Virus record (IMG/VR): IMGVR_UViG_3300020182_000007
Direction: 5' to 3' (one strand)
Length of the DNA: 64,000 nucleotides
From: a virus
Part shown: piece by piece, positions 8,266 through 62,052 of the stretch
How positions within the stretch are numbered: the first letter of the stretch is position 1
Layout of the letters: the number at the start of each line of letters is the position of its first letter
Position numbers and translations under genes: made by a program
The notes under the pieces: model-generated
What the model was told of the DNA's origin: nothing
The model's database searches: none
What the model saw: the letters and a program-made list of their open reading frames with translations, nothing else

Positions 8266-9021
8266 TTATTTTAAATCTGGTAAATAGTTAGATGCCATTT
8301 CAAAGAAACCATCTGTAAGCATAGATATCATAGCAGATCCCGCAGTAGCAAATGTCTCTTGGTCGATCATGACAATAGGATTTTTATCATCTTTAGTATC
8401 GCCTACTGCCGGCCACATATATTCACCAGACCCATAATCATGTGTTACCCAATCTTCATTTGTAATATCGATCTTTAGTTTCTGTGCAATTGTCTTTACT
8501 AGAATTAGACGAGTAAGAGTAACTCCTACTTCATGAGCAATTTGTTCAATTACAGCGGACATAGAACTTACGTTTTTTGCAGCGCCACTTAATCTTGTAC
8601 CGTTTGTCCAAAAGTACTGATCTTTACCTCCATTCATTATATTAACTAATCCATAAATTATGGCATCGTTTTCAGATTCTTTTCCTGCAGCAACATCCTT
8701 TTTAACTTCTTCTTCTGGGATACCAGAAAACTTTTCAACATCATCTCCTAAAGCAAAAACTCCAGTAGAATCATCTGACATAGACATAACAACGGTTTGT
8801 TTAATTTTCTCGCCAAAAACAGCGGAATCTTCCATTGTCATTTCAAACTCAAAGTCATATTTCTTAGCGAAGATTCCTTCACCTAGGTCTAAATCAGTAG
8901 TAGTCCATTTAATATCATATGTATCGGGTATTGATATGTTTCCCGGTTTATATGATCCAGCTTCTTCATTTATTGATTTAGCTTTGTTTGTAAATTGTTC
9001 AAATAGTTTAATGTGCTTCAT
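8266..9021 (-). CDS. putative internal head protein with CTS-like leader MKHIKLFEQF
   Basis: Shared N-terminal leader; GATATATA at 9026-9033. Confidence 0.75.
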   Translation of the reverse strand: MKHIKLFEQFTNKAKSINEEAGSYKPGNISIPDTYDIKWTTTDLDLGEGIFAKKYDFEFEMTMEDSAVFGEKIKQTVVMSMSDDSTGVFALGDDVEKFSGIPEEEVKKDVAAGKESENDAIIYGLVNIMNGGKDQYFWTNGTRLSGAAKNVSSMSAVIEQIAHEVGVTLTRLILVKTIAQKLKIDITNEDWVTHDYGSGEYMWPAVGDTKDDKNPIVMIDQETFATAGSAMISMLTDGFFEMASNYLPDLK

Positions 9022-9135
9022 GGTTTATATATCGTTGTTTTTTCTTGATCGCGTCGATCTTACAGGTGTTGTATTAGTAGGTCTTATATTACTATTTCCA
9101 TTATTGTTTCTAATCACAGGAACTACCAGATTCTC

Positions 9136-9213
9136 TCTAATAACTCTTCTCGGTTTTGTGGTATTGTTATTAATTGGTGTAGTATTAGTTCTAATAACTC
9201 TTCTCGGTTTTGT
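9136..9213. repeat. 24-bp direct repeat (9136-9159 and 9190-9213)
   Basis: tctaataactcttctcggttttgt occurs twice. Confidence 0.9.
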
Positions 9214-9300
9214 AGTTCCTTTAGTAGATTCTATCATAGAAGCATGTGCCTTGCCATTTCCTGTAGTTGTTCTAGAATATGCACCTAATAAACTTCCACG

Positions 9301-10455
9301 TCATATTGATTGTTTAAAAATTTTTGTTTCTATTTCTTTAATTTTTTGTGCTATTTGAGGACCTTTTACACCAAACTCTTTTATTACCTTGTTTCCGTCA
9401 GTACTTGGTTTGTATTTTAAGAATGCTCTTATTAGCTTAAGATCTAATCTATTTATCTTTGAGAATACAATAATGTTGTTTTTATCCAATACCGTTCTTT
9501 CGAATTCTTTGTATAAATCAAAAACTCCTTCAGGTTTAAATGTTAATAGACTTTTTAAGAATATGACGCAATTTACTTCATCACTAGAGAAAGTCATTCG
9601 ATTCATCTCTTTTTTAATCAACTCACGGTCGTTGTTACCAAATATTGTTGCTAACTGTACTAACCATAGGCTTGACTCTATAAAATTCTCGCTAACTTGT
9701 AGATTAGGAAACATTACTGGCCAGAGGTTAAACTCGCTTACCATTTTTAGGTAGTCTTTTGTCTTCTTTGCGGATTCAATTGATTTTTTAAACTCATCTC
9801 TAATTCTCTCAGGACTAACACCCTCTAAATTATTATCGGTTAAAATAGCATCTGCAGTTTCTTTCTCAAGCCTTGATCCTGTTTTACCCGCAAATCGAAG
9901 GGCTCTTAACTTTCTTAATGGATCCTCAGCAAATCTTTCTGCGGCGATTCCAACAGTTCTAATCTTTTGATCTTGAATATCTCTTAAACCACCTACTAGA
10001 TCTATAACTTCACCCTTACTAATATCATAGAAAAGAGCATTAATTGTTAGGTCTCTTCTGAGAACGTCTTTATCTATTGTTGAGTAATTTACACCTTCAG
10101 GTCGTCTGCCACTTCCGATATCCTCGCGAAAGGTTGCGATCTCAACTCCATTTCTATCTGAAGGAATCTGTACGATAACGACTCCAAATTGCTGCCCAAC
10201 TTCTCCAATTGTTGAGTATCCAGCAGCTGTTACTATTTTAACAACCTCTTCTGGAAAAGCATCAGTTGCTAAGTCAAAATCCTTTGGCTTTTTACCAAGT
10301 ATCGCATCACGAACTGCACCTCCTACAATATAGAGCTCTTTGCCGTTCTCTTTAAATAGTTTATGTAGGTCAATAACATCAGACGGCACGTTGAGCTTAA
10401 GTGTACTCTGTGCTTCAGTTAGCAACTTAAATTCTGTATATGTTTTTATCTTCAT
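9301..10455 (-). CDS. cca: CCA-adding tRNA nucleotidyltransferase (class II, no HD domain) with CTS-like leader
   Basis: GGAVRD...KDFDLAT, RRDLTINAL and EDPLRKLRALRF motifs; N-terminus MKIKTYTEFKLLTEA. Confidence 0.9.
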   Translation of the reverse strand: MKIKTYTEFKLLTEAQSTLKLNVPSDVIDLHKLFKENGKELYIVGGAVRDAILGKKPKDFDLATDAFPEEVVKIVTAAGYSTIGEVGQQFGVVIVQIPSDRNGVEIATFREDIGSGRRPEGVNYSTIDKDVLRRDLTINALFYDISKGEVIDLVGGLRDIQDQKIRTVGIAAERFAEDPLRKLRALRFAGKTGSRLEKETADAILTDNNLEGVSPERIRDEFKKSIESAKKTKDYLKMVSEFNLWPVMFPNLQVSENFIESSLWLVQLATIFGNNDRELIKKEMNRMTFSSDEVNCVIFLKSLLTFKPEGVFDLYKEFERTVLDKNNIIVFSKINRLDLKLIRAFLKYKPSTDGNKVIKEFGVKGPQIAQKIKEIETKIFKQSI

Positions 10456-10486
10456 GTCAATAATGTTATTTAATTATATATTCTGT

Positions 10487-11776
10487 TTAAAATGTCCTTT
10501 CTCCTTCGTAAATTCCTTTCATTACTGGAAATCTTAACGATTCTTCTCCTTTATCGTTCTTTGTGGTTTCGAAGTACTGCACTGTTATTGTTTTTCCTAA
10601 GATTTGATCAGGGTTTTCAAAGAAGTATCTTTTTTGTTCGTGAGAAAATCCAGAGCCAACTTGAACCCTGTTTCCTTTATGTTCAACCACAACATTTTTG
10701 AGCATTAACTCATCAACCTCTTTTCCTTCTACAATAACTCTATTTACTGCGTTTTCAAGATCTACAACAACGTATTCGTCATCAAAGAATTTCTTAACTT
10801 TAAGAATATCATTAGAACGTTTTCCTTGATAGGTATCATCTTTGCGTAACATTAGTCCTTCCCAACCCTCGTTCTTAGAGATCTCCATCATATCTTCTAG
10901 TAGATCATCGCTTCCTATTCTCTGGTCTAATACCTTGATAAATTTATTGTCTAATGATATAGATTTAAGAGATTCTAGTCTTTCACTTAGAAGTGATGTA
11001 GATACTTCTTCGTTAAACTCTGTTAATGTTAATAGATCAAACATAAAATATACAGGATTTTCGATTGTGTGATCTTTTCTCTTGATCTCTTTAATAATTC
11101 CTTGAAAATCTTCGTTTCCATCTTTATCAGTCATACAAATCTCTCCATCAATAACCATATTTGTAAGTCCTAATTTCTGAATAGAAGGCTTTAAAGAATC
11201 TAATGTTAAGAACGGCTTTCCAGCTCTACTAAAGAAATTAACATTTCCAATCTCGTCAATTATTGTTAAACAACGAACACCATCTAATTTGCGGCTAACG
11301 TACCAGTTATCATTCCAATCTACTTTCTTTGAGGTTTTTTCGTTATATGTGTTTGCTAACGCTACGTCAAACGTTGGAATTAACCCTGGAACTACTTTGT
11401 TAATCATAGAAGTCGTAGAACGTGTCTTTAGGTTTCTATCAATAATATTCCAAATAAGATCTGCGTATACATAGTTCTCTTGTACAAATCTATTGACGTT
11501 TGCAATTGCAGCATGTCCTGTACAAACTCTATTATTTAAGTCATCTAATAAACCGAAGAAATCTCCATAAGTATTTGGATGACCCATAAGATCTGAATTC
11601 TTTTTACAGTTCTTAGAAGTTACTCCATATTGCTTATAAGTATCATAAGTATATAGAAGAGCCTTCTTAACGCTATCATACTGGGTGTACGTCTTTAATA
11701 CATCAAGCTTGTCTGTGTTTGAGTTAGTTGTGTTTGATTGTTCAACGAAATCATAAATTAATTGTAAGTCTGTCAT
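10487..11776 (-). CDS. lig: ATP-dependent DNA ligase
   Basis: Motif I KLDGVR, DGEI, EGLMLRK, KVKK and an OB-fold C-terminus with SLRFP. Confidence 0.95.
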   Translation of the reverse strand: MTDLQLIYDFVEQSNTTNSNTDKLDVLKTYTQYDSVKKALLYTYDTYKQYGVTSKNCKKNSDLMGHPNTYGDFFGLLDDLNNRVCTGHAAIANVNRFVQENYVYADLIWNIIDRNLKTRSTTSMINKVVPGLIPTFDVALANTYNEKTSKKVDWNDNWYVSRKLDGVRCLTIIDEIGNVNFFSRAGKPFLTLDSLKPSIQKLGLTNMVIDGEICMTDKDGNEDFQGIIKEIKRKDHTIENPVYFMFDLLTLTEFNEEVSTSLLSERLESLKSISLDNKFIKVLDQRIGSDDLLEDMMEISKNEGWEGLMLRKDDTYQGKRSNDILKVKKFFDDEYVVVDLENAVNRVIVEGKEVDELMLKNVVVEHKGNRVQVGSGFSHEQKRYFFENPDQILGKTITVQYFETTKNDKGEESLRFPVMKGIYEGERTF

Positions 11777-61255: not shown

Positions 61256-61271
61256 ACTGGGAAGTAGACAT

Positions 61272-61302
61272 AAAAAAACCTGAACTAAAAGTCCAGGTTT
61301 TT
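61272..61302 (-). terminator. intrinsic terminator
   Basis: AAAAACCTGGA/TTCAGGTTTTT plus U tract. Confidence 0.75.
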
Positions 61303-61328
61303 AATAGTTTTTGTTATATTATAAATCT

Positions 61329-61775
61329 TTATGCTTGTTTCCAACCGTTTTTACCTACCTCTAAGTTTGACATTGCTTTTATAACATCATCAATTGTAGC
61401 AACATTACCTTTTGTTACATACCAATTGCGTTTGGTACGACCTCCGCTGCCGTCTGTTGGTTGTGCGACTATCTGCATTTCTTTTGGTGCCAATGGTTCA
61501 TAATCGTCAGAGTTAAGAATTCTCCAAGTAAAACTATAATCCAAATCTTTTATTCCAAATATTTCAGTTCCGGTATTTCCTTTAGTCTTTGTATTCATGG
61601 TAAAAAAACCATGGCTATAGTCTACTTCCCATGTTGTAATCCCGGTTGCCTTAATTAATTTTTTTGTTAGTTCTGTACGTTCTTTTAGCCTTAACTTAGC
61701 ATCTTGATTAGAAGTACTATCATCAGCGAATTGAGATTCATTGATAAACTGTTCAAATAATTTAATGTGTTTCAT
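61329..61775 (-). CDS. putative internal head protein (leader MKHIKLFEQFINES)
   Basis: Shared leader. Confidence 0.8.
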   Translation of the reverse strand: MKHIKLFEQFINESQFADDSTSNQDAKLRLKERTELTKKLIKATGITTWEVDYSHGFFTMNTKTKGNTGTEIFGIKDLDYSFTWRILNSDDYEPLAPKEMQIVAQPTDGSGGRTKRNWYVTKGNVATIDDVIKAMSNLEVGKNGWKQA

Positions 61776-61791
61776 TTTATATTTTGTTTTA

Positions 61792-62052
61792 TTAAACTGA
61801 ATAACCGGCGTCTGATAAGTACGATTGTACTACGTCAAGTGCATCATCAAATCCTTTGTTTTTTTCTACACCCGCATTTGGTCCCCATTCTTCTTGCATC
61901 CAGTATTCTAATGACTCAAATCCTTCGTCTTCCCAATCTCTGTTTTTTGGAAATTGAGACTTAAATTCATCTCCAATATTATAAGGATCTATATCATCCC
62001 ATGATTTTCTACCTTCTGTGATAAACTGTTCGAATAATTTAATGTGTTTCAT
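61792..62052 (-). CDS. putative internal head protein (leader MKHIKLFEQFITEG), acidic
   Basis: Shared leader; late promoter at 62079-62086. Confidence 0.8.
   Translation of the reverse strand: MKHIKLFEQFITEGRKSWDDIDPYNIGDEFKSQFPKNRDWEDEGFESLEYWMQEEWGPNAGVEKNKGFDDALDVVQSYLSDAGYSV

Follow-up and report, generated by a model that had tools for sequence, protein, structure and literature searches.

The capsid targeting sequence (CTS) of bacteriophage T4, which is also known from its engineering uses, is a short N-terminal propeptide that is found on the internal proteins IPI, IPII and IPIII and in the Alt propeptide, and that is removed by the prohead protease gp21. IPII and IPIII start MKTYQEFIAE↓A and IPI starts MKTFKEFTS...ITE↓A (here and below an arrow marks a known or predicted cut). 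The first ten residues of IPIII are enough for packaging, gp21 cleaves after L/I-x-E, and within the signal residues 4 and 7 serve targeting and residues 8 and 10 serve processing (PMC9026906). T4 has three known tagged proteins and the T-even phages together have about ten (PMC12373910); their known internal proteins are inhibitors of type IV restriction enzymes. Here we describe a 13-residue leader, MKHIKLFE(Q/E)F(I/V/L)(N/S/T)E, that begins otherwise unrelated proteins encoded by the IMG/VR virus record IMGVR_UViG_3300020182_000007, and that is probably a capsid-targeting propeptide of the T4 type, so that the tagged proteins would be packaged in the head, cleaved and delivered with the DNA. 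The 64,000-nucleotide stretch that was analyzed (the window) corresponds to bases 7850-71849, read on the reverse strand, of this 148,784 bp contig, which has a CheckV completeness of 49%. It belongs to a T4-related jumbo phage whose host is probably a marine Bacteroidota. Nearly all genes of the window are on the minus strand, as are all genes given below by window coordinates.

The initial annotation had listed eleven open reading frames (ORFs) with a common N-terminal leader, and each of the eleven does begin with an ATG on the minus strand. The leader itself is real. It is near-invariant in eight of the eleven (window starts 62052, 61775, 47902, 45647, 15408, 15084, 14783 and 9021), which read MKHIKLFEQF(I/V/L/T)(N/S/T)E or differ from this at one to three positions, while the other three, at 10455 (cca, MKIKTYTEFKLLTEA), 13407 (rimK, MSTRILSYQDFVINEA) and 42784 (a polyprotein, MKFKKVLLFEELQNQEA), carry looser variants. 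Beyond the window there are four more strong copies (genome positions 90463, 93597, 93886 and 95954) and three weak ones (2812, 83998, which encodes a NUDIX hydrolase, and 96609), bringing the total on this incomplete contig to 12 strong and about 6 weak leaders. Scored with a position matrix derived from the strong copies and run across the genome, the eight strong leaders of the window reach 37-43 bits and all twelve strong copies 33-43 bits, far above the top score of 16.3 bits among 36,216 internal windows of the genome's proteins. Across all 148.8 kb of the contig the core pattern has 13 matches on the coding strand, all of them at ORF residues 4-10 and none internal, and the single match on the opposite strand lies in a 25-codon frame that is not a gene. 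The bodies behind the leader are unrelated, as had been noted, the best E value in an all-against-all BLASTP comparison of the 18 leader-trimmed proteins being 0.01. To judge by its sequence, the leader is charged and amphipathic, lacks a hydrophobic core of at least 10 residues after its basic N-region, and is followed by polar linkers. The major capsid protein (MCP), portal, sheath and tube, which are abundant late structural proteins, all lack it, and thus the leader is not a general feature of late genes or an expression device.

The likeness to the T4 CTS that had been proposed on first reading stands, since the four determinant residues are in register, the leader ends in (L/I/V)-x-E, and an S77 protease is encoded. 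In an alignment made by eye over seven residues, F7, F10, I11 and E13 of MKHIKLFEQFINE correspond to T4 Y4, F7, I8 and E10, and all four are conserved here; two variants come nearer to T4, namely that of g003 (MINFKQFITE↓A) and that of rimK (..SYQDFVINE↓A). In both systems a short tag stands at the N-terminus of unrelated proteins, which are late in T4 and putatively late here; the tag has an aromatic-x-x-Phe-(Ile/Val/Leu)-x-Glu core with (L/I)-x-E at its end, a protease of the gp21 family is encoded, and the tagged genes are variable and partly clustered. They differ in that the leader here has 13 residues with an extra K-H-I-K-L block rather than 10, that at P2 it usually has Asn, Ser or Thr where T4 has Ala, and that there are 12-25 tagged proteins per genome, with several enzyme classes and jointed polyproteins among the cargo. 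In addition, protease and scaffold are here one fusion protein, a marine Bacteroidota is the probable host, and the MCP is distant from gp23 (E = 1.6e-4 to the PDB gp23 chain).

Other head-protein systems compare less closely. The ip loci of the T-even phages likewise hold clusters of unrelated small genes with only a leader in common, and one complete relative of the present phage (G010, 256 kb) has 14 such genes in a row within 7 kb; here, however, leader genes are also scattered, each with its own late motif, and their cargo is mostly unassigned or enzymatic. The jumbo phages phiKZ, 201phi2-1 and SPN3US also use a gp21-like protease to process many internal head proteins after Glu, but at S/A-x-E or A-x-E sites, behind propeptides of more than 100 residues and with no common leader, and in this respect the 13-residue near-invariant leader ending in I/V/L-x-E sets the present phage apart from the phiKZ/SPN3US type. 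According to titles and abstracts, the Dar proteins of phage P1 and the ejection proteins of P22 also travel in the head and enter the cell with the DNA, and some counter restriction, but the abstracts read report no common cleavable N-terminal address tag. No description of a capsid targeting leader outside the T-even phages was found in the literature searched.

The leader genes are associated with a late-promoter-like motif, GATATATA, which occurs 33 times in forward and once in reverse orientation in the genome, nearly always between genes and usually 20-35 nucleotides (nt) before a start codon, among others at the genes for protease, MCP, sheath and tube; a one-base variant, AATATATA, precedes the portal gene. 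The motif lies within 70 nt of 9 of the 18 leader genes, compared with 23 of 174 other ORFs (genome-wide, Fisher p = 5.6e-4), and the remaining leader genes come shortly after, in strings that a motif heads. That most of the eleven genes sit behind this motif, as the initial annotation held, was confirmed: seven have their own copy or that one-base variant, and the other four stand second or third in a string with a motif at its head. A gp55-like late sigma factor is encoded at 50633..51013 (phrog_234, E = 1.2e-7). At three genes, g026, g071 and g073, the motif (window 47908-47915, 9026-9033 and 7353-7360, respectively) ends only 4-5 nt before the ATG (5 nt at g026 and 4 nt at g071); with the spacing to the transcription start that T4 late promoters have, their mRNAs would be leaderless or nearly so.

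The conservation of the leader is at the level of the peptide and extends well beyond this genome. Scanning IMG/VR with a degenerate DNA pattern for MKHIKLFE(E/Q)F returned more than 117 loci, at which the leader precedes unrelated bodies, enzymes among them. Among the 135 matches listed, the preceding in-frame stop was at most 175 residues away, and in nearly all at most 31, placing the pattern at or near the start of an ORF. In the 117 distinct examples among the matches listed, His is encoded by CAC in 66 and CAT in 51, Ile by ATT in 66, ATA in 41 and ATC in 10, and Leu by CTA in 54 and TTA in 46; given that synonymous codons are free while the peptide is fixed, selection acts on the peptide and not on the DNA. 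Positions 11-13 were outside the search pattern, and among the same 117 matches position 11 is I, V or L in 82%, position 12 is N, S or T in 74% and position 13 is E in 82%, with [LIVMT]-x-E at these three positions in 94; conservation ends at position 13, there being none from position 14 onward. The DNA upstream of the leader genes is unconserved beyond the promoter motif. A protein word search on residues 1-40 gave only 5 candidates and was unusable as a census of leaders.

An S77 protease in a frame of 580-750 residues was found in 27 of 50 leader-bearing records, including all three that are at least 90% complete, the others being fragments of 10-49%. The MCP was 39-85% identical to that of the present phage in all 22 protease-bearing records tested, and the exact ten-residue leader has thus outlasted a large divergence of the capsid. 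The same DNA pattern searched against 185,579 bacterial and archaeal species genomes gave one match, a phage fragment. This sequence, SKFV01000236.1, is 3.9 kb long with 36% G+C, is binned in a Pseudomonas metagenome-assembled genome, and carries the clade's cca and a leader gene; it derives from a phage and was binned there as a contaminant. The leader is confined to one clade of viruses, uncultured phages of 250-480 kb.

The portability of the tag that the initial annotation had suggested is apparent from two cargo bodies, those of g071 and a P-loop kinase, which carry a leader of the MKHIKLFEQF.. type in this clade and one beginning MIKLKD.. elsewhere. In the 94 metagenomic homologues of g071 the bodies align from about residue 23 and the N-termini are lineage-specific, among them MKHIKLFEQF.., MKHIKLFEQFTNE.., MKHTLLFEEFLNK..INEE, MNIIPTFTAFLNE, MIKLKDILYENLNE, MKTYIDFLNE, MKEQELRKLIREELSMLNE and others, nearly all of which end in hydrophobic-N-E. 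In the MIKLKD lineage, the 90 kb contig L186 encodes a g071 orthologue that, like the products of the genes around it, opens with MIKLKD... One of these neighbours, a P-loop kinase, is 43% identical (E = 7e-63) to the kinase of the present clade that bears MKHIKLFEQFISE, the alignment beginning right after the Glu of the leader. The MIKLKD leader occurs at 98 IMG/VR loci, and both complete genomes of that lineage encode an S77 protease with leader genes on either side of it. The tag follows the lineage of the phage, not the cargo. As in T4, the S77 protease of the MIKLKD lineage stands alone, with about 200 amino acids (aa), no scaffold fusion and no long scaffold gene within 1.5 kb; the small genes to either side have leader-like N-termini, for example MKTSQLKELIRQVVKEE, MIKLKDLLKEEE and MKLKDILEES.

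Two of the strong leader genes of the window, g026 and g028, flank the protease gene within the head module. The portal gene (T4 gp20 type; 47922..49517; phrog_213, E = 1.3e-71) is followed by g026 (47561..47902; 113 aa), which has the leader MKHIKLFEEFVSE↓N and an acidic C-terminal tail, and which in position and composition appears to be an analogue of the T4 prohead core protein gp67. The next gene, g027 (45666..47513; 615 aa), encodes a prohead protease of the S77 (T4 gp21) type together with a scaffold-like coiled-coil part (phrog_207, E = 3.2e-41; PF03420, 52.6 bits). Its N-terminal part aligns to PDB 5jbl (T4 gp21) and to wild-type gp21 with the catalytic His (GELDHPS, GELNHPP in T4) and Ser (ISSRAAG) retained, and the remainder is a repeat-rich helical region with six heptads of the form Y/H-x-E/D-Y/H-(V/L/I)-x-E that resemble the leader. 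Between g027 and the MCP gene lies g028 (45069..45647; 192 aa; leader MQYVKLFEQFINE↓A), which is conserved across the clade, always with its leader, and whose fold model found no match in the PDB. The MCP (T4 gp23 type; 43586..44971) was identified by profile and alignment matches, and its maturation cut is likely, judging from the alignment, at L-Y-E44↓D, other lineages having L-N-E, I-N-E or L-F-E at this boundary or a few residues after it and a conserved (L/I)-x-E being present at residues ~44-55. The start of the MCP, MATLINE↓AEI, was considered as the counterpart of the LTE↓AEIGG cut in gp23 and rejected: the N-termini of the MCP and gp23 align with each other, and in the HMMER alignment the T4 cut falls near residue 55.

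Matches to the heptad [FYH]x[EQD][FYH][LIVT]xE are found at 14 leaders, at six places within the scaffold part of g027, and at only 4 places elsewhere in 44,272 residues. The scaffolds of relatives have 2-10 copies (for example YSEHVAE, YAEYIAE, YSEYLAE and YSEYIAE), T4 YQEFIAE fits the same pattern and is nearly identical to YSEYIAE and YAEYIAE, and T4 gp22 starts MLKEQLIAE↓A. From this likeness of leader and scaffold heptad we infer that the tag may be a single free-standing copy of the scaffold's assembly-and-cleavage unit, each T4-related lineage having its own address code matched to its scaffold and protease, a proposal that we put forward tentatively and consider possible rather than probable. 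The mimicry is approximate, in that scaffold heptads end A-E and leaders mostly N-E. Separately, the polyprotein g133 (genome 91609-93582, beyond the window) contains three tandem copies of an acidic segment, DLNLPAEELESDLEDTTPEVKDADGKKYVKA..EDGAKEVA, which is also found once in the scaffold part of g027 and forms a second link between the cargo polyproteins and the head core.

The explanation that we consider probable is that MKHIKLFE(Q/E)F(I/V/L)(N/S/T)E acts as the T4 CTS does. In the mechanism we propose, the tagged proteins would be made late, and their short amphipathic leader would dock on the scaffold core of the assembling prohead, probably by imitating the scaffold heptad (aromatic-x-E-aromatic-V/I/L-x-E). 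The shell would then close round the core, and the scaffold-fused protease of the gp21 type would cut after the Glu of (I/V/L)-x-E, freeing the mature cargo within the head; DNA would be packaged next, and at the following infection the cargo would leave with it. That the leader docks and is cleaved, and that the cargo stays in the head and is later ejected into the host, are all inferences from sequence comparison and from what is established for T4. The cargo would then comprise the two conserved head-module proteins, many small proteins, polyproteins jointed by ESVVTE↓A, and enzymes, and the data support the existence, in a distant clade of jumbo phages, of a putative T4-type capsid-targeting system that is larger, richer in enzymes and more modular than that of T4.

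Several observations weigh against this explanation. Less confidence attaches to the three loose leaders than to the eight strong ones, since they could be chance resemblances, and for rimK no orthologue was found in 49 relatives, its case resting on the resemblance and on the presence of an N-terminal extension. Mature cargo might be expected to avoid the cleavage motif, but depletion of (L/I/V)-x-E is weak in this genome (15 observed, 23 expected, p about 0.03), and in 98 IMG/VR cargo proteins the count was 246 against 255 expected, with control ORFs enriched (1412 against 1247). About 18% of the proteins with an exact leader, among the 117 matches listed, have no Glu13, most of them having L/I/V-N-E a few residues later; g071 is one such. 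Finally, the leader was not seen in 41 kb around the head genes of LR756500, the nearest database relative, or in 25 kb of Tenacibaculum phage PTm1.

Alternatively, the leader might direct proteins to the prohead core while the tagged proteins serve as assembly helpers, as T4 gp67, gp68 and gp22 do, and are degraded or expelled at maturation rather than injected. The conservation of g026 and g028 and their place in the head module, the gp67-like character of g026, the resemblance of the leader to the scaffold repeat and the lack of recognisable function in most of the cargo are all consistent with such a role. On the other hand, most leader proteins vary between close relatives, which is not expected of assembly factors: among the leader proteins of this contig only g003, g026 and g028 have homologues in G010. 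Folded enzymes carry the canonical leader in relatives, and the small cargo proteins here have few internal cut motifs. We regard the assembly-helper role as unlikely for the tagged proteins as a whole. Slightly less likely again is that the leader is some other peptide signal, be it a site for a modifying enzyme, a degron, a localisation signal or a translation-enhancing N-terminus, with a likeness to T4 that is convergent. Short 5' coding regions that are rich in lysine and in A can favour initiation, but the abundant late structural proteins do without the leader, its conserved Phe, Phe, Ile and Glu stand exactly at the positions that function in T4, and it has no hydrophobic core of the kind found in secretion signals. 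Moreover, the Radical_SAM family (PF04055) was not found in this contig or in the complete relatives G010 and G046, and was found only in G016, whereas the S77 protease is present in all three complete genomes. It is very improbable that the shared start is mainly a block of DNA homology for recombinational cassette swapping, with no function as a peptide. The DNA of the ESVVTE linkers is near-identical among the polyproteins, as such a block would be, but in the leader the synonymous sites vary freely over a fixed peptide, the upstream DNA is not conserved, and the leader is always in frame at the start codon; recombination may be an added benefit, but cannot explain the conservation of the amino acids.

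If the packaging of tagged proteins is correct, the T4 CTS principle recurs in a distant uncultured clade, with at least 20 tagged proteins per genome that include enzymes and jointed polyproteins, a fast turnover of cargo and a lineage-specific leader. The 13-residue motif would then be a cheap means of finding injected phage proteins, a class that includes anti-defence factors, in metagenomes, and the mechanism of the tag could be sought in mimicry of a scaffold repeat. Should the more tentative address-code proposal also hold, metagenomes would yield a catalogue of thousands of ready-made injected phage proteins, and the enzymes among them could weaken host immunity ahead of all phage gene expression: phosphodiesterases like Acb1 could counter cyclic-nucleotide signalling, NMNAT-like enzymes the depletion of NAD, and CCA-adding enzymes damage to tRNA.

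The small cargo genes of the window lie in two strings and at g071. The first string is headed by g009 (61792..62052; 86 aa; leader MKHIKLFEQFITE↓G, 40.5 bits), which truly begins at the Met of the leader, five codons into the longest ORF; GATATATA lies at 62079..62086 on the minus strand, 26 nt before it, and g009 has no Pfam or PHROG match. The second gene of this string is g010 (61329..61775; 148 aa), with the leader MKHIKLFEQFINE↓S (43.3 bits). A string of three cargo genes is headed by g064 (15091..15408; 105 aa; leader MKHVRLFEQFVSE↓K), with GATATATA at 15433-15440, and continues with g065 (14797..15084; 95 aa; leader MKHIKLYEQFLNE↓G) and g066 (14358..14783; 141 aa; leader MKHIQLFEQFLNE↓G). 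None of the eight cargo proteins with strong leaders in the window gave a family or fold match in Pfam, PHROGs, the ESM Atlas, Foldseek searches against the PDB, or VIA-align.

The leader of g071 (8266..9021; 251 aa), MKHIKLFEQFTNKAKSINE↓E, has Lys in place of Glu13, and the I-N-E that comes next has its Glu at residue 19. The AlphaFold model of this protein has a predicted local distance difference test (pLDDT) score of 89.8 from residue 24 on and of less than 50 for most of residues 1-22, so that leader and linker are, in the model, a floppy appendage to the fold. The model had no convincing match in the PDB (best Foldseek E = 0.04, best VIA Z = 4.3), and may represent an undescribed fold, possibly that of a metal-dependent enzyme. 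The body belongs to a family that is widespread in marine metagenomes (94 clusters), in which E159, H163 and E164 are invariant and H168 nearly so, in an HExxxH-like arrangement; the present phage has Thr168.

The polyprotein g031 (41036..42784; 582 aa; weak leader MKFKKVLLFEELQNQE↓A) has two copies of GATATATA upstream, at 42820-42837. Three joints, ESVVTE↓A, ESVVNE↓A and ESVVTE↓A, connect its modules, and a (KGTSGKD)n repeat forms its tail. Such ESVVTE and ESVVNE joints are also found in two polyproteins beyond the window, and the DNA of the joints is near-identical, being exactly GAATCAGTAGTTACTGAAGCT in 8 of 13 copies. The C-terminal part of g031 (window 41036-41400) holds about 20 tandem KGTSGKD/E units, and similar repeats occur in g144 and g184 beyond the window.

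Enzymes had been claimed to be among the tagged proteins, and this holds, with the qualification that cca, rimK and the NUDIX hydrolase of this contig have weak leaders, and that the canonical tag is found on several enzyme classes in relatives. The CCA-adding/poly(A) polymerase-family enzyme (cca; 9301..10455; 384 aa; leader variant MKIKTYTEFKLLTE↓A) matches Pfam PolyA_pol from residue 41 (E = 2.4e-34) and has AATATATA 19 nt upstream; orthologues with 76-79% identity retain MQLKTFTEFQM(I/V)(T/N)E↓AQ, and distant paralogues have no extension and start directly at the catalytic domain. The RimK-type ATP-grasp enzyme (11923..13407; 494 aa; Pfam RimK E = 1.7e-36) has a 26-residue N-terminal extension, MSTRILSYQDFVINE↓A, that is a loose T4-like variant of the leader, with Rimk_N beginning at residue 28 and AATATATA 23 nt upstream. 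ATP-grasp proteins with a canonical leader were considered as counterparts of rimK and proved to be relatives at the level of the superfamily only. The canonical-leader enzymes of relatives are an NMNAT-like cytidylyltransferase, a P-loop kinase of the AAA_33/zeta type, two ATP-grasp enzymes, and a 2H phosphoesterase that passes the threshold of Pfam Acb1, a family directed against the cyclic oligonucleotide-based antiphage signalling system (CBASS). G010 has 22 leader ORFs in all, and its sharing of only three leader proteins with the present contig indicates that cargo turnover is fast.

Besides the head module, the window encodes a head closure protein, a DNA end protector, the large terminase, tail sheath and tail tube. 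The nearest MCPs in databases are those of an uncultured 462 kb phage (50% identity), the Prevotella Lak megaphages (~41%) and Tenacibaculum phage PTm1 (35%), and a megablast search with 20 kb of the contig against a phage collection gave no match. Upstream of rimK, 950 nt of the minus strand (window 13408-14357) contain no ORF of at least 60 aa and have GATATATA at ~13735-13742, 327 nt before rimK; the interval could hide a small gene or RNA. In T4 itself, gene 57B (NC_000866, 73952-74410), which we take to be T4 Acb1, adjoins ipI, is annotated in the record as an RNA ligase, and starts MMEFKDFST, which recalls the IPI leader MKTFKEFTST.

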